Shown here: positions 5,792-30,461 of the stretch, piece by piece
How the letters are laid out: the number at the start of each line of letters is the position of its first letter
Position numbering within the stretch: the stretch's first letter is position 1
From: a virus
Taxonomy: Duplodnaviria > Caudoviricetes
IMG/VR virus record: IMGVR_UViG_3300020727_000041
Span: 1 to 37,036 of that record
DNA: 37,036 nt
Direction: 5' to 3' (one strand)
The notes under the pieces: generated by a model
What the model saw: only the letters and a program-made list of their open reading frames with translations
Databases searched by the model: none
What the model was told of the DNA's origin: nothing
Program-made: the position numbers and the translations under genes

Positions 5792-6126
5792 TAGATGTCT
5801 CCTGTATGTTTCAATACCTCAGCGCTCGCTTTGGTAATCTTGTCCGCAGATGGCATAACATCTGCGTTATATGCTGCGCCCAGTTTGTCGCTGGCAGCCT
5901 TAGCCTCATTGATGGCTCTCATGGTGGTTCCTGCTGGCTGAATGCCTTCGGCTCTAGCCTTACGGTATGCTTCTAATTCACCATCCCAGCGCTTGGCTGT
6001 CATAGGTGCTTCTGCTCTACCTGCATCTCCTGAATTGATATGTAGGTTAGATGCTCTCAAGCATTCAATATAAGATTCGTGATTCTTTTCTAAACAACCT
6101 GTTCTACAATTTTCGCCTAGTGGCAT
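5791..6126 (-). CDS. hypothetical protein with N-terminal Cys/His motif
   Basis: Start moved to ATG 6126 (GAGGAAG upstream); CRTGC...H..Y.EC; WDGELEAYRKARAEGIQP. Confidence 0.75.
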   Translation of the reverse strand: MPLGENCRTGCLEKNHESYIECLRASNLHINSGDAGRAEAPMTAKRWDGELEAYRKARAEGIQPAGTTMRAINEAKAASDKLGAAYNADVMPSADKITKASAEVLKHTGDI

Positions 6127-7171
6127 CTTTGACTTCCTCAAAAAACTTTAGGTTACGTTGGATACGGTCATTTTCAGGACCGTTAGCCTTTACCGCTTCT
6201 TTAGTAAAGGTTATTGCTTCGTCAATGTGCTTGAGATTGTAAGCAGCGATTCCTGCAAGGTCGAAGGCTTTCCAGTCCCAGACTGCTGATTCGTAGCAAT
6301 AATGGTTGGAGCGAGGAGACTCCAAAGCGTTGAGAGAAGCATCTAGGCACCGCTGCCATTCTTGCTTTCGGTATGCATCCATTGCAACACCGAACTGCGG
6401 CTCACCCTGCACGGGAAGAATATCCCTGCCTTTGTCATACCACATACGAGCAGTTTCTTCTTGGCCAAGTTGATGCGCTGCTTCTCCTGCCCATCGGCAA
6501 ACTGCAGCACTTTCAACATCCCAGCCCTCGTTTTCTAACTTGCTCTCTGCTGCTTTGATAACATCTTCCCACCGTTGGTAGAAGAAGTATTCTCTGCACA
6601 TATAGGTCCACATACGTGGGTCCTGGGGAAATTCTTTGACTGCCATCTCTAGCAGTTCCAAGTACTGACCACGAGATTTTGTGTTGTCTGGCAAATGCTC
6701 AATCATGGCATTGCGTAGGTCAATATCTTTTGGCTCTGTCTTGCCGTACCACACTTGCACTTCGTGGCAAGGGTACTTCCATGTCCAACCCCAGCGGGAA
6801 TGAATCCTGTCTTTTTCCCACTTGTTGGTATCTGTCTTCATGGTAATCCATGCAGAGTCAGTTCCAGGTTTCCACTTCTTACGAACTTTGTCGAAGAAGC
6901 CAGGTTCGGGAACTTCATCCATATCAAGAATTAAACAGGCGTCAGCATCATCTGGCACTAAAGCCAGGGATGCATTACGAGCCATGTCAAACCTGAATGG
7001 TTGAACATGAATTTGATGGACAGTTACTCCCAGCGCTTTAAGCGCTTCTTGTGTTCCATCCGTACTACCAGTATCAGCAACGACACGATAATCAGCGCCT
7101 TCAGTTGCCTTAGCCCAACGTTCCGCATAAAGAATCTCATTCTTTGATATTGCATACACAGCAATCTTCAT
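6104..7171 (-). CDS. GT2 family glycosyltransferase with C-terminal TPR-like helices
   Basis: 355 aa; ISKNE, DTGSTDGT, FDMARNASL, DxD (LDMDE), HE motif, then helical repeats. SunS/SgtA-like architecture. Confidence 0.9.
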   Translation of the reverse strand: MKIAVYAISKNEILYAERWAKATEGADYRVVADTGSTDGTQEALKALGVTVHQIHVQPFRFDMARNASLALVPDDADACLILDMDEVPEPGFFDKVRKKWKPGTDSAWITMKTDTNKWEKDRIHSRWGWTWKYPCHEVQVWYGKTEPKDIDLRNAMIEHLPDNTKSRGQYLELLEMAVKEFPQDPRMWTYMCREYFFYQRWEDVIKAAESKLENEGWDVESAAVCRWAGEAAHQLGQEETARMWYDKGRDILPVQGEPQFGVAMDAYRKQEWQRCLDASLNALESPRSNHYCYESAVWDWKAFDLAGIAAYNLKHIDEAITFTKEAVKANGPENDRIQRNLKFFEEVKDATRRKL

Positions 7172-24232: not shown

Positions 24233-24371
24233 GCATTGCCTATGGGCAACGCTATGGGGTTGGTAGGGGGCGCCCTGAAGGCGCCATATGGGGTAGGAGG
24301 TAACCGACCCTAAGGAGGTTACCGACGCTCTCAAACAGTCTCCGCTGTGAGGCTCCGACTGTTGTGAGAGC
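24233..24371 (-). other. array of four inverted repeats in the terL leader
   Basis: Stems at 24233-24252, 24269-24285, 24299-24323 and 24327-24371. Confidence 0.65.
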
Positions 24372-24449
24372 CGAACGGAAGGGGCTGTTTTATTTTATCC
24401 CCTATATATATTAAGGTGGGGATTTTACCGTTTATCCCGCATTGAGGTG

Positions 24450-24465
24450 TGTGATGTTCGTCACA
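24450..24465. promoter_or_regulatory. consensus CRP/GlxR-type binding site
   Basis: TGTGA-TGTTCG-TCACA, an exact TGTGA-N6-TCACA match, in non-coding DNA. Confidence 0.7.
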
Positions 24466-24861
24466 TACTATAAAAGTGCTGGTCAGAGCCTATATTTAGA
24501 AAAAATATTTTGGTTGATAGTAACGGTAGGTAGGCGCCGAGATTAAAAACCCTGGGGTTGCGATAGTCGCTTTATCGACTTTCCGACGGCAAGACTTATC
24601 CCTAGCCCCCACAGAATTACTCTCTCAGACCCCACAGAATGCAGGGCATTCCTACCCGTTCGAGCCTCTTATATCGCCGTATAAGGGCGAACTTCTTACC
24701 TTCTAGGGCGTTAGGGCAAGGGTTCGAGGCGTGATGGGGGACTGTCCATTCCTCCACTTTCCCCCACTTCGAGGCCTCCCGATTCTGACCCGATTCCCTA
24801 ACCTTGAGCCTCCTCGACTCAACTCTTATGCCTAGCACTCTCCCCGACAGTCTGCCAATTG

Positions 24862-24922
24862 GTTGAACTTTCAACTAATGACCATTTGAGCGTGGGAAAG
24901 TATGACCACTAAATGACCATTT
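24862..24922. promoter_or_regulatory. operator-like palindrome and repeats upstream of the early promoter
   Basis: GTTGAA-CT-TTCAAC (24862-24875); ATGACCA at 24878, 24902 and 24913. Confidence 0.55.
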
Positions 24923-24927
24923 CCACC

Positions 24928-24956
24928 TTGACACGCCTGTATCAGGCGCGTAATCT
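24928..24956 (+). promoter_or_regulatory. sigma70/SigA-type early promoter P1
   Basis: TTGACA-17 bp-TAATCT; the spacer holds palindrome CGCCTG-TAT-CAGGCG. Confidence 0.85.
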
Positions 24957-25001
24957 TCTCTATATCGGGGGCAAGCCCCGAACCTATGGAAGGTGGAAAG
25001 T

Positions 25002-25253
25002 ATGAAGTGGGACAAGAAGTTAGAACACAACTACCTCGGAATCATTCAGCGCACAGTTGAAGGTACAACTAAGGCGCATGCCTACTACTACATCAAGCAA
25101 GCAACGGGCTACTATCACGGCTATGTAGTCGGACGTTATACCTTCGGCAAGACTATCGACTACCGCGAATGGTTCTCGACTCTCGCTGAGGCTCGCGCCT
25201 TCGCTAAGGAGGTAGACGAGAGCACCCTAGTAATTGAGGAGGTGCGCGCATAA
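25002..25253 (+). CDS. hypothetical early protein
   Basis: 83 aa from ATG 25002; GGAAGGTGG RBS; Tyr-rich, FSTLAEARAFA. Confidence 0.75.
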   Translation: MKWDKKLEHNYLGIIQRTVEGTTKAHAYYYIKQATGYYHGYVVGRYTFGKTIDYREWFSTLAEARAFAKEVDESTLVIEEVRA

Positions 25254-25387
25254 TGGCAATCCCTGTCTATCCCTCAATCTGCCTCGCTTGTGGCGAGCCT
25301 TGCCTAATGTATGTCCTCAACCAAGATTGGTGCCTAGAGTGCCTCCTCACCGCTAAGAATATCCTCACCCGAAAGGAAGTCGCATAA
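25253..25387 (+). CDS. 44-aa Cys-rich microprotein (CLAC...CLEC), not in ORF track
   Basis: Hand-translated; GAGGAGG RBS; TAATG overlaps at both ends. Confidence 0.75.
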   Translation: MAIPVYPSICLACGEPCLMYVLNQDWCLECLLTAKNILTRKEVA

Positions 25388-25551
25388 TGGAAACAAAATT
25401 CACTAAAGAAGAACTTTCTCTCATTTATTCCGCCCTATTCCACGACTCTCAAGGCACTTGGGGAGACGGAAGAAGGCAGGAAATTCACGCCCTGCTCGGG
25501 CGCCTCGATTACTACCTAGCCCGCGCCTATGTCGGAAAGGAAATCGCATAA
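25387..25551 (+). CDS. 54-aa microprotein (METKFTKEEL...), not in ORF track
   Basis: GAAAGGA RBS; TAATG overlaps at both ends. Confidence 0.75.
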   Translation: METKFTKEELSLIYSALFHDSQGTWGDGRRQEIHALLGRLDYYLARAYVGKEIA

Positions 25552-25697
25552 TGAAGCAACTACTCGCCGTTCTAGCAATAGCCCTAAGCCTACTCGCCAT
25601 CGGCTACCGCGCCACTCACACGCCTATCTATGGCAATTGCCACCAGACGGCAGACGGGCAAGTGTGCACACTCATCAAATACGTGTCGAATCGCTAG
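25551..25697 (+). CDS. 48-aa membrane-anchored or secreted microprotein
   Basis: True start ATG 25551 (GAAAGGA RBS); MKQLLAVLAIALSLLAIG hydrophobic segment; two Cys. Confidence 0.75.
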   Translation: MKQLLAVLAIALSLLAIGYRATHTPIYGNCHQTADGQVCTLIKYVSNR

Positions 25698-25701
25698 GTG
25701 C

Positions 25702-25730
25702 TTGACGATAGGGCAGGGGCTTAGTATCCT
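25702..25730 (+). promoter_or_regulatory. sigma70/SigA-type early promoter P2
   Basis: TTGACG-17 bp-TATCCT in an intergenic gap; overlapped by an inverted repeat. Confidence 0.75.
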
Positions 25731-25781
25731 GCTCTATAGCCGAGAACTTCTCGGATTAACGCCTTATGGAAGGGGCTAACA

Positions 25782-26111
25782 ATGTGTGAAAAGTATGAAG
25801 GTTGGACTAACCGCGAAACTTGGGCAACGAATCTGTGGCTAGATAATGACCGCGGGCTGTATTACACAGTGCAAGAAATGGCACGGGAAGCAATTCTTAG
25901 CAAAGATGAAGACCAAGAATTCGCTTGTTCAACATGCTTGGCAGAGAACCTTGAATCTCTCTTTGATGAAGCCTTCTCAGATATTGCAGAGATGAGCCAA
26001 GAAGGACTCAACATGCTGAAAGATATCGGCTCGCTCTATCGTGTGAACTGGCACGAAATTGCTACCAATATCCTTTCAGAACTTCAGACACAGCAGGAGG
26101 TCAGCGCATGA
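25782..26111 (+). CDS. conserved phage hypothetical protein
   Basis: 109 aa; YEGWTNRETW..NLWLDND and VNWHEIA motifs; acidic. Confidence 0.8.
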   Translation: MCEKYEGWTNRETWATNLWLDNDRGLYYTVQEMAREAILSKDEDQEFACSTCLAENLESLFDEAFSDIAEMSQEGLNMLKDIGSLYRVNWHEIATNILSELQTQQEVSA

Positions 26112-26344
26112 AACTCAGCACCTACGAACGACACATTAAAGACGGCAAACACTGGAACGCTGCAGGCTTCTTAGAAGCCCTGCACCGTAATGGGGTATCG
26201 CTTGAACACCTCATGACCAACGACTGGGACAATTCCACGCCTAGAGTTTACCTAGAGGTAAGCAAGGGCAGAGTCTATAAAAGATTCAGCGATTACGACT
26301 TCGCTAACGCTCTAAAGTATTACCGTGAGCAGGTGAACGCATGA
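26108..26344 (+). CDS. hypothetical early protein
   Basis: 78 aa, AGGAGG RBS, ATGA overlap. Confidence 0.75.
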   Translation: MKLSTYERHIKDGKHWNAAGFLEALHRNGVSLEHLMTNDWDNSTPRVYLEVSKGRVYKRFSDYDFANALKYYREQVNA

Positions 26345-26442
26345 ACGCCGAATGTGTAAAGGGAAACCACTCTAACTGTCCCGACGCCTTAGACGATACT
26401 TATTCTTGCTCTTGCCCTTGCCACTTAGGGGCAACAGCATGA
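26341..26442 (+). CDS. 33-aa Cys/His microprotein (C....H..C.........CSCPCH), not in ORF track
   Basis: ATGA overlaps at both ends; AGGTG RBS. Confidence 0.65.
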   Translation: MNAECVKGNHSNCPDALDDTYSCSCPCHLGATA

Positions 26443-26561
26443 GCCTCGACCTACGCCCCGCCTATGCTGTACGCCTAGAAGGTGGCTCTATTGAATACAT
26501 CCCCTACTGTGGGGACTGTCTCGTACCTATCAATGAATGCACACACAAAGGAGCAAAATAA
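26439..26561 (+). CDS. 40-aa microprotein (CGDC......CTH), not in ORF track
   Basis: ATGA overlap; stop abuts the next ATG. Confidence 0.65.
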   Translation: MSLDLRPAYAVRLEGGSIEYIPYCGDCLVPINECTHKGAK

Positions 26562-26786
26562 ATGGACACAAAACTGCCCGAACGAATTAACGCCATGAAG
26601 TTAATTTCTTACGACGTGCAACAAATAGCCGAAACTCTAATGGCAGAACAAGAATTAGTAGCGCACGAGATAACTTTAGAAATGATTATGGAAAGAATTG
26701 AAGCATGGGTCGAGGAAGATTTTGCTCATGATGTAGCGGATAGCACTATCTATCAAGATGAAAACGGAGAGGAGATAGAACTATGA
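26562..26786 (+). CDS. hypothetical highly acidic protein
   Basis: 74 aa, AAGGAG RBS, ends YQDENGEEI. Confidence 0.75.
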   Translation: MDTKLPERINAMKLISYDVQQIAETLMAEQELVAHEITLEMIMERIEAWVEEDFAHDVADSTIYQDENGEEIEL

Positions 26787-26947
26787 GCAACGAACGGCTG
26801 AATTATTGGAGGCTCTTAGCCGAGCAACACGAGTTGGAAGTGCAAGAAGCGACCCGTGAGGCGGATATTCCCCGCGCTATTCGTGCCACTATGCAGATGG
26901 CGCACGCGCTAGAGCAGGCAAGAATTACGGACGAGCGTGGCGAGTAG
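26783..26947 (+). CDS. 54-aa helical microprotein, not in ORF track
   Basis: GAGGAG RBS, ATGA overlap; MSNERLNYWRLLAE... Confidence 0.7.
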   Translation: MSNERLNYWRLLAEQHELEVQEATREADIPRAIRATMQMAHALEQARITDERGE

Positions 26948-27095
26948 TTGTTACTCGTATGACTTCTACGGGCAGGAGTGGCTGACTCATTGCGGGTCTG
27001 GCTCCTGCTCGTGGAATATCTACACCCCGAACTTGCGAGAGGCTAAGCGCCTTCGCCTTAAACACACGCGCCGCGAATGTGGCAACGGATACTGA
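26937..27095 (+). CDS. 52-aa Cys/His microprotein, not in ORF track
   Basis: GTG start, fills the gap; C....C...H....C pattern; weak RBS. Confidence 0.55.
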   Translation: MASSCYSYDFYGQEWLTHCGSGSCSWNIYTPNLREAKRLRLKHTRRECGNGY

Positions 27096-27107
27096 AAGGA
27101 GGAACAA

Positions 27108-27269
27108 GTGAGCAGAACTCTTACCGAGACAATTGGCGAGCACGCTACCAACGCACTACACGAAGCGATTCGTATTGCGTGGCAGGCTGGCTACGACCAA
27201 GCACTTATTGACATGCAAGAGCACGAACAACACATTAGCCAATTAGTGGCTGAAGATATCGGGGAATAA
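27108..27269 (+). CDS. 53-aa microprotein, not in ORF track
   Basis: AAGGAGG RBS, GTG start, AWQAGYDQA motif; stop abuts whiB. Confidence 0.75.
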   Translation: MSRTLTETIGEHATNALHEAIRIAWQAGYDQALIDMQEHEQHISQLVAEDIGE

Positions 27270-27662
27270 GTGGACAACTGGCAGGAATTGGGAGCATGCT
27301 CAGGGACAGACCCAGAAGCATTCTTCCCAGAATATAACCGTGACGCCAACACGCAGAAGGAGCAGATACTAGACGCCTTGCAGGCGTTAAGGGTCTGCTC
27401 TACCTGCACTGTATCCGCTGAGTGCTTCGCCTATGCGATGGCACATGATGACTCAATCAACGCTGGGATATACGCAGGCACTCTCGCATTTGAGAGGCAA
27501 CGCATAGCCAAGAAGCAGGGCAGAGTCGTCATCTCAGGAGGCGCACCACGGTTAGAGCAAGCAATCAGGCGACACGCTAATAGGCAACAAATCGCCGTTC
27601 CCCCGTTAGGAGTAGAGCCATTAAACGAATCACTAAGAAGGCAGCAGCAACGCTCAGCATAG
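27270..27662 (+). CDS. whiB: WhiB family Fe-S transcription factor
   Basis: W....AC...DPEAFFP, CSTC, C, then GIYAGT...ER (variant of G[VI]WGG). Confidence 0.9.
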   Translation: MDNWQELGACSGTDPEAFFPEYNRDANTQKEQILDALQALRVCSTCTVSAECFAYAMAHDDSINAGIYAGTLAFERQRIAKKQGRVVISGGAPRLEQAIRRHANRQQIAVPPLGVEPLNESLRRQQQRSA

Positions 27663-28054
27663 GAATTGTCCTAGCGAGCGCAGTAACGACCCTAGAGGCG
27701 GATAGGAAGGCGATTAAACGCCATCCTAGAACCGCTTTACTACCCACTGTAAGCCAGTTAAAGTCGTGGACACAGAAGCAGTATGGCAAAGACGCCATTC
27801 AATTTGAGTGCCTCGATTTACTCTGGACTATGGAATCCCACTGGAACTATAAAGCAGTGGGAGCAAAGACTCGCCAGGGCTTGGCATATGGAATACCTCA
27901 AGCCTTGCCTGCAATCAAGATGAAAGACTCAGGCGCAGACTACTTGACTAATCCCTACACTCAAATAAAATGGGGCTTACGTTACATAGAACTACGCTAT
28001 AACAACAACGCCTGCTGGGCGTTACGTCACGAACTCAATAAAGGATGGTATTGA
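27620..28054 (+). CDS. secreted SLT-family lytic transglycosylase, apparent ATT start
   Basis: QFECLDLLWTMESHWN, AYGIPQALP, NPYTQIKWGLRYI..RY, GWY. AGGAG lies 7 nt before in-frame ATT 27620, followed by a signal-like N-terminus. The ORF track captures only 27830 onward. Confidence 0.8.
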   Translation: MKRITKKAAATLSIGIVLASAVTTLEADRKAIKRHPRTALLPTVSQLKSWTQKQYGKDAIQFECLDLLWTMESHWNYKAVGAKTRQGLAYGIPQALPAIKMKDSGADYLTNPYTQIKWGLRYIELRYNNNACWALRHELNKGWY

Positions 28055-28213
28055 ATGAGCAGTGGAAATAATGTACGAGAAATGGACTGGACCTGGGAGT
28101 GCCCAGACTGTCGTCATCTCAACGAAGATGTAACTGTATTTGTGGACGGAGTAGATGATTACGCCAACGCTACCTGTGAGGCGTGTGATTACGAGACAGA
28201 GGTCAAGGTATGA
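28055..28213 (+). CDS. 52-aa zinc-ribbon microprotein (CPDC...CEAC), not in ORF track
   Basis: AAAGGA RBS; abuts the previous stop; ATGA overlap. Confidence 0.75.
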   Translation: MSSGNNVREMDWTWECPDCRHLNEDVTVFVDGVDDYANATCEACDYETEVKV

Positions 28214-28440
28214 AGGACTGTTTCTGCACCAAGACCTACCAATGCCTCGGATGTGAGAGGCAAGAAGAACGCAAGCAGGCTATTGCAGAAGGCCGTGCAC
28301 TCACTCGCAAAATTGCAGAGTGTGGCACTCGTGCTGGATACAATCGCCATCTTAAACTGAAGGAAGAAACCTGTGCTGACTGTCGTCAGGCGCAGAAGGA
28401 ATCGGTAATGCGGGCACAAGCAAAGAGAAGGGCAGCATGA
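28210..28440 (+). CDS. Cys/His-rich basic protein, probable zinc-binding
   Basis: 76 aa; CFC...CLGC and CGTRAGYNRH......CADC. Confidence 0.75.
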   Translation: MKDCFCTKTYQCLGCERQEERKQAIAEGRALTRKIAECGTRAGYNRHLKLKEETCADCRQAQKESVMRAQAKRRAA

Positions 28441-28631
28441 ACAGAAACGGAAACAAACTAACGCCTGCAGATGCAGCACTTATCCTGGCAGAACTGGATA
28501 GAATTGCAGAACTTGAGGCACAGATACCGCTACGCAAGATAGAACTAGCCAAGAGATTTAATGTAAGCCAGAGCACTCTCACTAAGATTCGCAATGGCAC
28601 CACATGGGGCTGGCTAAGGGAGCAGAAATGA
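28437..28631 (+). CDS. small HTH DNA-binding protein
   Basis: 64 aa; LAKRFNVSQSTLTKIRNGTTW. Confidence 0.8.
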   Translation: MNRNGNKLTPADAALILAELDRIAELEAQIPLRKIELAKRFNVSQSTLTKIRNGTTWGWLREQK

Positions 28632-29392
28632 ATGAGCCAATAGTATTCGTAGCCATCCTGGCCAAGCAGAAGGAAGCAATGCTCCCTGCCTGGCTGGAAT
28701 CGCTGAGCCAATGGGATTACCCAAAGGACAAGATGATTCTCTGGGTACGCAGTAACAACAACACAGATGGCACTGAGGCTATCTTGCGCAAATGGGTTGA
28801 AGAGAATGGCAAGTGGTATCGCTTTGTCATTGAAGACTATAAGAACATTGACGCACCAGTGCAGGAGTATGGCGTACATGAATGGAATCCTGTGCGCTTT
28901 AAGGCGCTCGGTGCCCTACGTGAGGCCAGTGTTGAGGCTGCTTGGTATGCAGAGGCAGACTTCTACTGGGTTGTGGATGTAGATAACTTCGTCAAACCAC
29001 ATACGCTACGCACAATGGTAAGTTACAACCTGCCAGTGGTGGCACCAATGCTGGGCAGTGCAGACCCAGAGCAACCTGCTTACTCTAACTATCATCTCCT
29101 CGCCAATGTGCGAGGCTACTTCCTTGATGACATCCGCTACTACCAGGTACTCAAGCAAGAGATTAAAGGCTTGATAGTCTGTGATGTGGTGCACTGTACC
29201 TATCTCATTCGCAAAGATATTCTCACCAAGATTCTCTATGTGGATGGCACTGATGACTACGAGTATGTCATCTTCAGTCGCAACCTACGCAACCTGGGCA
29301 TCCCGCAGTACCTGGACAACCAGGAAATCTTTGGCTATCTCTCAACGCGTGAGAACCTTAAGGCAATTCAGGAGAAGATGAATGGCAATTAA
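28628..29392 (+). CDS. GT-A glycosyltransferase resembling the N-terminal domain of procollagen galactosyltransferase (COLGALT1-like)
   Basis: Start ATG 28628 (ATGA overlap); VFVAILAK, DYPK, NNNTDGTEAILRKW, DVDN, PVVAPML, YSNY, VHCTYLI. Confidence 0.8.
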   Translation: MNEPIVFVAILAKQKEAMLPAWLESLSQWDYPKDKMILWVRSNNNTDGTEAILRKWVEENGKWYRFVIEDYKNIDAPVQEYGVHEWNPVRFKALGALREASVEAAWYAEADFYWVVDVDNFVKPHTLRTMVSYNLPVVAPMLGSADPEQPAYSNYHLLANVRGYFLDDIRYYQVLKQEIKGLIVCDVVHCTYLIRKDILTKILYVDGTDDYEYVIFSRNLRNLGIPQYLDNQEIFGYLSTRENLKAIQEKMNGN

Positions 29393-29678
29393 GCCAACGG
29401 AATTAAAGAAGTTGGTGGCGCTCCTAGATGAGGAAGCGCCATCGGCTGAGTGGTTAGCCAAAGCAGTATGGGAATTGGTAGAAGAACTGATGGCGCAACG
29501 CACGCAGTATGTTGTCTACGCCATCCACCCAAGCCTCAATATCGTGCAGGCAGTTGGCCCATATGCAACAAAAGATAAACTGTTAAAAGATTATTCAAAG
29601 CGTATTCATGCTTACGACAAGCACTCTCGTGCTATCATTGCAGAGTTAAAGCATCCAAGTGTGATAACAAAGGATTAA
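29382..29678 (+). CDS. hypothetical protein
   Basis: 98 aa, AGGAG RBS, VGPYATK motif; last gene of the plus operon. Confidence 0.75.
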   Translation: MAIKPTELKKLVALLDEEAPSAEWLAKAVWELVEELMAQRTQYVVYAIHPSLNIVQAVGPYATKDKLLKDYSKRIHAYDKHSRAIIAELKHPSVITKD

Positions 29679-29787
29679 CACGGAGTCCGTCCTTTCACCG
29701 TGTTAATGGGCCAGTCTCCTCAGACCTTCCACTGAGTTGTAGCGGCAAGACAAAAGCCTCGGCGTAAAAACCGAGGCTTTATCTTTT
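29674..29787 (+). ncRNA. candidate 3'-UTR small RNA with anti-Shine-Dalgarno loops
   Basis: ATTAACACGG/CCGTGTTAAT stem (loop AGTCCGTCCTTTCA), CTCAG/CTGAG stem (loop ACCTTCCA), then a terminator. Confidence 0.5.
29752..29787. terminator. bidirectional Rho-independent terminator
   Basis: AAAAGCCTCGG-CGTAAAAA-CCGAGGCTTTATCTTTT between convergent operons. Confidence 0.9.
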
Positions 29788-29804
29788 AGGTACTTCCCCT
29801 ATAC

Positions 29805-30461
29805 CTAAATCTGGTGTAGTCCGCCTGCAGTATCCTTATAAAATCCATAACCTGTTGGCGTTAGTGTGAATGGTGTAGGCACAGCCTCAATGAATGAGTA
29901 TGGAGCCTTGCCATTGACATCATAGAACGATGGGAATGTCCAATTGGGTGCAATAACATCCTTGCCATCACGTGAGACAATTCTGTAGAGCAAGCCACGA
30001 ACATGGTCTGCTGGCTCTAGCAACCAGGTACGGCCCTTGCTATCTGGCTTAGATAGGTTGGTAATAGTTGGGTCAACCAACATCTCAATGACTTCATGGA
30101 AGACAACTGTTGCCGTGCCCTGCTCGTATCTATCTTTAGATAGCACAAGATTCTTGTAAGAGATGCCCTTACGGAACTTACCCAGCGGTGCATTACGGAA
30201 TGACCCGCCTAAGATGTAGGCAATAGGCTGACCGTTCAACACTTCATGGTAGCCGTAGGCTTGCAACGACTGTGGGAAATGGTCCACAACACAGACGTTC
30301 CAACCATTGGCTGAGCGTGTGTTAGATGAAACAACAACTGTCTCTTCTAGGTTCCACGCCTGCACTACTTGATTAACAAAGATGCCCAGTGCCGAGCCAA
30401 TACTGGCAAAGTCTGGCGCTGCTAAATACTTTGACTCATTAACAAATGTAATCGTTCTCAT
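29805..30461 (-). CDS. putative zinc metalloprotein / peptidase-like protein
   Basis: Start moved to ATG 30461; GYH...HEVIEMLVDP...EPAD...NWTFPSFY. Confidence 0.7.
   Translation of the reverse strand: MRTITFVNESKYLAAPDFASIGSALGIFVNQVVQAWNLEETVVVSSNTRSANGWNVCVVDHFPQSLQAYGYHEVLNGQPIAYILGGSFRNAPLGKFRKGISYKNLVLSKDRYEQGTATVVFHEVIEMLVDPTITNLSKPDSKGRTWLLEPADHVRGLLYRIVSRDGKDVIAPNWTFPSFYDVNGKAPYSFIEAVPTPFTLTPTGYGFYKDTAGGLHQI

Follow-up and report, generated by a model that had tools for sequence, protein, structure and literature searches.

A putative phage small RNA whose hairpin loops covary with the ribosome-binding sites of predicted early genes

Staphylococcus RNAIII and RsaE are host regulators whose C/U-rich loops, with a fixed UCCC motif, block Shine-Dalgarno (SD) sequences, while CsrA/RsmA sponge RNAs display ANGGA motifs in the loops of the transcribed strand. 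The C4 antisense RNA of phages P1 and P7 is a three-stem RNA that is cut from a precursor by RNase P and keeps lysogeny; its loops act in trans by pairing with ribosome-binding site (RBS) regions of the phage itself, and loop variation sets the specificity (PMC5320573). The 6C RNA of Actinobacteria, encoded by a host gene with conserved C-run loops, consists of two hairpins with exposed C-rich loops (PMC6486639), and the cuckoo RNAs of alphaproteobacteria combine two to four modular hairpins of variable stems with an invariant anti-SD-like loop, CCUCCUCCC (PMC4615179). Known phage small RNAs (sRNAs), as described in one review, mostly have single targets and come from temperate phages (PMC12197685). 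On the mRNA side, cluster K mycobacteriophages and cluster EF Microbacterium phages carry Start-Associated Sequences (SAS), which are over-conserved RBS tags of non-structural genes (PMC3203893, PMC7302621, PMC11373665, PMC12699233).

The window analysed here, a single virus record of 37,036 bases from a freshwater phage, encodes terminase, portal, capsid, tail, primase and helicase proteins along with a sigma factor and WhiB-like genes. The best GenBank matches of its capsid protein are F5 and E7 (61.5%), which are cultured phages of 'Ca. Planktophila' (PMC10202952), followed by Streptomyces cluster BF phages at about 53%, and an actinobacterial host is therefore likely. A cassette of small genes on the plus strand (25002-29678) converges with a minus-strand replication operon, and the RNA element occupies the gap between the two. 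We term this cassette early, a presumption based on its layout and its TTGAC-type promoters, P1 (TTGACA-17-TAATCT, 24928-24956, plus strand) and P2 (TTGACG-17-TATCCT, 25702-25730, plus strand). ATG 25002 is the probable start of the first early gene, and the last one (29382-29678, plus strand) encodes 98 amino acids of unassigned function, its final codons holding the predicted promoter of the RNA in most relatives. A GT2-like glycosyltransferase-like gene (28628-29392) lies at the end of the cassette, and a beta-1,4-glycosyltransferase-like gene (6104-7171) adjoins a tail-fibre gene. Between terminase and P1 is a 650-nt non-coding gap (24250-24900) with an AT-rich stretch common to relatives L035 and L060, possibly a packaging or genome-end region. 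A tRNA/tmRNA search found none, neither the element locus (blastn) nor the 98-aa protein (tblastn) had a match among 50,697 GenBank phage records, and the protein was not found in GTDB genomes.

As the original prediction held, two hairpins and a terminator follow the last early gene and fold as described (z = -2.75, with one of 200 shuffles equally stable). Hairpin H1 (29674-29707, plus strand) has a 10-bp stem (29674-29683/29698-29707), overlaps the stop codon of ORF 29382-29678, and presents the loop AGUCCGUCCUUUCA (29684-29697), which is complementary to GAAAGGA. Hairpin H2 (29709-29746, plus strand) has a bulged stem conserved in relatives, with the upper stem at 29719-29723/29732-29736, and its loop ACCUUCCA (29724-29731) is complementary to UGGAAGGU. 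A bidirectional intrinsic terminator with a U-tract (29753-29787, hairpin 29753-29780) lies between the convergent early and middle operons and is the predicted 3′ end of the RNA. The UCUCCU linker, which had been taken for a free anti-SD, belongs to the lower stem and conserved bulge of H2 and reads GCUCC or GCUCG in nearly all 32 H2 variants, so it is not one. The original prediction overlooked a promoter-like signal in the upstream ORF and a fourth hairpin, H4 (29785-29809, minus strand), which lies in the 3′ end of the middle transcript and has the minus-strand loop UAGGGGAAG. Pairing in H4 is almost entirely Watson-Crick (164 pairs over 23 variants), and in the long variant L089 three wobbles pair on the minus strand only. 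H4 accompanies the RNA at 52 of 64 loci and also occurs at seven of eight RNA-less loci, and is thus a separate element. Its minus-strand loop, AGGGGAAG, is near-invariant between freely covarying arms, and the loop motif recurs in a hairpin within the F5/E7 middle operon (L314, ~31333). Kissing between H4 and H2 was considered and rejected, since the H4 loop is fixed while the H2 loop varies, and H4 persists where the RNA is missing. Resemblances to an HDV-like ribozyme, Y-RNA and the tRNA D-arm were weighed by eye and dropped.

Compared with the described systems, the element would resemble C4 and 6C in its working and belongs to neither. Rfam 15 covariance models gave no matches in the window, no family exceeding its gathering threshold, and a scan of 29550-29900 returned five weak matches around the terminator, each of them far short of the threshold. 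As in C4, a structured RNA encoded by a phage has loops that match the phage's own RBS regions, a likeness that takes the form of computed covariation here. Unlike C4, it is a row of one or two hairpins followed by a terminator, with its own predicted promoter and matches at several early genes, and the element showed neither the three-stem P1-P3 fold nor a match to the C4 Rfam model. It shares a two-hairpin layout and an actinobacterial setting with 6C, on whose analogy pairing would be chaperone-free, whereas its loops vary, track phage-specific tags, have at most four C in a row, and match no Rfam family. Like cuckoo RNAs, it is assembled from hairpin modules whose stems vary and whose loops resemble an anti-SD, but these loops differ between hairpins and between phages, and none of the listed variants (32 of H2, 30 of H1) has the loop CCUCCUCCC. 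With RNAIII and RsaE, compared here through Rfam, it has in common C/U-rich loops that would block SD sequences. The ANGGA motifs that sponge RNAs carry in their transcribed-strand loops were found on the minus strand only.

A search with the 98-aa last early protein yielded 64 viral and 80 metagenome loci, many of which are the same phages, and motif scans brought in further phages with a different upstream gene. MAFFT alignments were poor on the variable stems and resulted in an RNA model without base pairs, so stems were parsed by script. Across 32 distinct H2 variants, the upper stems remain complementary over 2-6 bp, and the conserved base pairs GCU-C opposite U-N-G-(U/A)-AGC. Thirty H1 variants were parsed, of which seven were judged by eye to be mis-parsed; among the remaining 23, G·U pairs on the plus strand occur in 13 and A·C in three, all at one loop-side position, and the H2 variants have eight G·U against one A·C on that strand. 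This preference for G·U over A·C indicates that H1 and H2 fold on the plus strand. A sequence-only RNA model run against 16 sources found only the window, the related genomes G004 and G005, and two weak terminator matches. The H2 pattern proved too loose for GTDB genomes, where 120 stretches were seen against about 800 expected by chance; one of the 120 passed a loose fold filter, and it is unlike the element. At least eight relatives lack the RNA, which is therefore dispensable in the phage group. Insertions around the RNA (in L085 after 4616, where an ORF and a new promoter stand ahead of H1; in L073/L074 after 384; in H1 of L076/L079/L304) include a lengthened version with multiple hairpins and an H1 that has gained an internal stem.

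The pairing asymmetry bears on the idea that the minus strand does the work, with GGA-rich copies of the RBS tags in its loops serving to decoy a nuclease or a protein that binds RBSs, for which CsrA-, RegA- and RegB-like factors offer a comparison. Such a decoy would covary with the tags too, ANGGA appears in the minus reading of 28 of 34 H1 variants, and H4 folds on the minus strand with a G-rich loop. The G·U pairs of both hairpins favour the plus strand, as does the position of the promoter; the terminator separates the middle transcript from H1 and H2; and among 37 H2 variants GGA is missing from eight and ANGGA from 29, leaving ANGGA in eight. We consider a minus-strand decoy, including the CsrA-type sponge once suggested for it, very unlikely. 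Nor do the motifs look like RBSs of minus-strand micro-ORFs, a start codon following in three of 34 H1 and two of 37 H2 variants and the micro-ORFs not being conserved.

In the window, the predicted targets of both loops are plus-strand RBSs in the early cassette, and each complement named in the original prediction is in place. The H2 loop is complementary to TGGAAGGT (24987-24994) at the RBS of the first early gene (ATG 25002) and to TGGAAGG (25767-25773) at that of a DUF7249 gene (ATG 25782). The H1 loop is complementary to GAAAGGA at 25371-25377 and 25535-25541, the RBSs of ORFs at 25387 and 25551, and to TGAAAGGA (27093-27100) at the RBS of an ORF at 27108. When all non-coding hairpin loops of the window were scanned against all start regions, H1 ranked first. 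A loop complement of at least 7 nt occurs at five of 17 early versus three of 35 middle/late start regions (Fisher p=0.065), making the loop-RBS match borderline when judged from the window genome alone, and one 8-nt match sits at a late gene (start 14240, minus strand). A tag is present at only about 20% of early genes. Predicted net pairing energies are modest, with the best at -9.8 and most at -2 to -6 kcal/mol after opening costs, and differ between early and later starts (p=0.017). From this genome it could be argued that these are plain 3′-end stabilising hairpins with chance complementarity, given that pyrimidine-rich loops readily match purine-rich RBSs and that terminator loops in the group are often C/U-rich as well. 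With the window borderline by itself, it is the relatives that decide the case, and their own-versus-swapped tests, with kin merged and null controls, already disfavour this explanation, leaving it the least probable of those we weighed.

For these tests, genes were called by script, and one fixed anti-SD score was applied identically to own and swapped comparisons; loci were limited to those with more than 3.3 kb of upstream sequence, and near-duplicates were merged. Over 28 loci with the RNA, the top three matches averaged a length of 7.88 for own loops against 6.91±0.18, and none of 20,000 permutations reached the own value. Merging kin by loop class gave p=1e-4 for H1 (11 classes) and p=0.002 for H2 (nine classes); controls on coding windows and stem arms gave p=0.14-0.59, and a complement-not-reversed control gave 0.34 for H2 and 0.023, weakly positive, for H1. 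At clade level (43 loci, 39 of them with the RNA in 12 clades, the loops of six loci being set by targeted patterns and L034 dropped as near-identical to the window), the own score was 7.57 against 6.46±0.25, a score that none of 50,000 permutations attained, and the own loop outscored the swapped loop in 63 of 66 clade pairs. Middle-gene starts, early coding windows and -60..-38 windows were null as clade-level controls, and the own early match exceeded the own middle match in 25 of 25 phages. An independent-pairs test was underpowered, with just 1-3 pairs on supported branches (p 0.5-1).

The tags change with the loops. Phages of loop class CCCUUCC have GGAAGGG, TGAAGGG and GAAAGGAC at 15, 3 and 0 of 162 start regions; in class CCCUUCA the counts are 4, 18 and 0 of 79, in class GUCCUUUC they are 8, 0 and 28 of 367, and in phages without the RNA 1, 0 and 0 of 68. 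Ten extra pattern matches outside the set, two of which look like chance, have GGAAGGG at 15 and TGAAGGG at one of 148 start regions. Loop-RBS matches reach 13 nt and extend to non-canonical tags such as GAACGGAUA, GAUUAGGG and GAUAGGA; the last occurs at five of 18 starts in L313, the most distant carrier (46% protein identity), whose loop is UCUCCUAUC. Further loop/tag pairs are ACCCUUCA/UGAAGGGU in L079 and CUAGUCCUUUC/GAAAGGACUAG in L043. Of the matches of at least 8 nt, 53 of 64 lie more than 3 kb upstream and none within the last 1 kb. At the first early gene, a one-base compensation separates the window (ACCUUCCA/TGGAAGGT) from L035 (CCCUUCCA/TGGAAGGG), while L037 is mismatched there, having the loop CCCUUCCA yet keeping TGGAAGGT. 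L060 lacks any own target of 7 nt or longer, and several H2 loop types have few or none. The covariation between loops and RBSs in related phages, which had been put forward as a check on the original prediction, thus came out in its favour, and this sequence comparison supports a role for the loops as anti-RBS elements directed at the phage's own early genes.

GAAAGGA-type motifs are common SD sequences in Actinobacteria, and the loops might accordingly be read as those of a general anti-SD RNA for host shut-off, with the matches to phage RBSs incidental. A precedent is 6C, which represses many host mRNAs via its C-rich loops (PMC6486639). A loop directed at the host would be expected to stay fixed, but the loops here change with each phage's tags, and we regard host shut-off as highly improbable.

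The upstream ORF speaks to how the RNA may be transcribed. In relatives, a TAnnAT box lies right after a conserved Pro codon near the ORF end; it is usually extended by TG and preceded, 16-17 nt upstream, by TTG. The residue encoded mid-box varies (M, S, K, T or I), yet its codon begins with A, and retention of this base despite the change of residue points to a constraint at the DNA level. TAnnnT with TG or TTG, 4-22 nt before the first stem, occurs at 51 of 64 distinct RNA loci (two rows, L073 and L288, having mis-set 5′ ends), at none of ten loci scored RNA-less (two of which, L251 and L302, are mis-parsed RNA carriers), and at 13 of 540 background positions; eight of the 64 RNA loci have no nearby TAnnnT. 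In L088 and L222, which lack H1, the box lies 6 nt before H2, and in L085, where a gene was inserted, a new box stands in front of H1. The window's clade is exceptional: at the family-typical position (TTGCAG-16-TGTGAT, 29638-29665, plus strand) the -10 is degenerate, reading TGTGAT where most relatives have TAnnAT, and an extended -10 box, TG-C-TATCAT (29630-29638, plus strand), sits 35 nt upstream inside the 98-aa ORF, with TG-C-TATGAT at the same place in L035 and L036. By its sequence, this box is likely the promoter of the RNA in this clade, with a predicted +1 at about 29645.

The pairing described above could also be performed by loops within, or cut from, the 3′ end of a long early mRNA, either as a timer set off by the finished transcript or by 3′-to-5′ pairing in cis. 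In every case the element closes the early operon at its 3′ end, ahead of the terminator; a good nearby promoter is missing in the window's clade, in the L039/L008 group and in some H2-only copies; and the Streptomyces BF analogue described below sits between co-directional genes with no U-tract after it. The promoter-like signal in most copies argues otherwise, its predicted +1 falling at or just before the first stem and moving with the RNA, and we hold the long-mRNA origin to be unlikely. It was also the form taken by the original prediction, a built-in timer that is released when the early transcript is finished. Its anti-RBS loops against the phage's own early genes are upheld by covariation, while release by the finished transcript is not supported as a general mechanism because most homologues have a promoter signal of their own, weak or shifted as it is in the window. 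The element is thus likely an independently transcribed sRNA, not a product of completing the early transcript; of the own promoter and terminator that mark a trans-acting antisense sRNA, the promoter is a promoter-like signal at 51 of 64 homologues.

TG extension is found in 47 of 64 RNA promoters versus one of 63 early promoters of the TTGAC type. In five of five relatives (L318-L322), the middle operon likewise begins with a TG-extended -10, ahead of a first gene that is predicted to be leaderless. In three of the five, TTGACA stands at 19-nt spacing, which suggests an activator-dependent middle-operon promoter. The likeness of the RNA and middle-operon promoters is the basis for placing expression of the RNA, provisionally, in the middle phase.

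The reading we prefer, with a probability of roughly 0.6, is that the element is transcribed from its own promoter as a stable RNA whose loops pair with the tagged early RBSs and end their translation. The small RNA, about 110-145 nt long, would be transcribed separately and accumulate once early expression has begun, as suggested by a promoter that is TG-extended like that of the middle operon, not of the TTGAC type. Its hairpin loops would pair with the extended SD tags of the first early genes, which are predicted to be the most strongly expressed, and stop ribosome loading; pairing would be of loop to single strand and chaperone-free, by analogy with 6C RNA. Since the first middle gene is predicted to be leaderless and most later genes are untagged, they would escape, and the likely purpose would be a timed shut-off of the early cassette.

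The same mechanism may instead serve mainly in superinfection exclusion or immunity against phages with the same tag, with tag turnover as escape, as in C4 of P1/P7. Loops and tags turn over rapidly in pairs inside one phage group, analogues occur in temperate K1 phages, and a gene for a tyrosine integrase-family protein (L529, 1891-2673) stands among the tail genes of G001 (= L043), a relative that bears the RNA. The integrase-family gene is missing from three of four related genomes searched, the complete RNA-bearing genomes G004 and G005 have no PF00589 match, and early genes without a tag would be left uncovered. Although we judge immunity as the main role to be quite unlikely, it is compatible with a timer, and the two are not mutually exclusive.

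Arrangements of this kind also occur in cultured phages. The early starts of F5 and E7 bear the tag GACAGGAG, to which the loop CUCCUGUC of a long hairpin (-24 kcal) in their middle-operon leader is complementary. This hairpin (L314 32680-32735, minus strand; L315 31630-31690, plus strand) is followed in cis by the tag GACAGGAG and could pair in cis with the next RBS; no hairpin was found at the F5 early/middle junction. Six Streptomyces BF phages (L316 38410-38460, minus strand; also L317 and L512-L515) have, after the early cassette, a conserved bulged hairpin with a covarying stem and the loop CUCUCUCCC, which matches 50 of 69 upstream versus eight of 70 downstream starts. It occurs in 29 records and offers a lab-tractable analogue; in Immanuel3, a phage of S. 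griseus, the hairpin is near 38442 on the minus strand.

Pope et al. describe one reverse-oriented SAS away from gene starts in K1 phages (PMC3203893). We find that in Anaya and Angelica the reverse SAS is the loop of a bulged hairpin, and likewise in Peanam, LilPharaoh and Leston (L516 ~29870, L517 ~28637, L521, L522 and L524); 146 records resemble the Anaya stretch, five more of which were inspected. In Anaya, a phage of M. smegmatis with its hairpin near 59870, 14 of 58 starts have a match of at least 8 nt to the loop. The hairpin stretch is annotated in Angelica and others as a hypothetical protein, possibly spuriously, and in Leston the hairpin is near the left genome end. Whole-genome searches of TM4 and Pixie found no anti-SAS hairpin, AnnaSerena had no matching loop, and the match in Feyre is not such a hairpin. 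Amgine keeps the hairpin, but its loop matches none of 55 starts at 8 nt or more though 16 carry the usual SAS, the loop having drifted from its SAS. SAS differ from the tags of the window's family in being 13 nt long and cluster-wide, while the latter span 7-13 nt and turn over between close relatives. A sequence-only model of the window RNA matched none of the analogues, which are therefore look-alikes, homology being without detectable sequence support.

In the open-access full-text literature, we found no account of the element RNA, and none in which the reverse SAS forms the loop of a hairpin. The function of SAS has been open since 2011 and is still called 'ill-defined' in papers of 2024-25 (PMC3203893, PMC11373665, PMC12699233). 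Tentatively, and at slightly less than even odds, we propose that actinophages barcode some of the mRNAs they encode with an extended SD private to each phage, that one sRNA loop reads the barcode and silences the set, and that the same logic explains the cluster K SAS and the Streptomyces BF AAGGGGAGAGA tags. This would be a general early-to-middle RNA switch, possibly an immunity code, of which the element here would be a fast-coevolving case. It would give a directly testable answer to the role of the cluster K SAS motifs, and the test is cheap because analogues exist in cultured phages whose hosts are laboratory strains. If true, one RNA closing a phage's own early cassette via an RBS tag that is shared and coevolves with it would add a new layer to phage timing.
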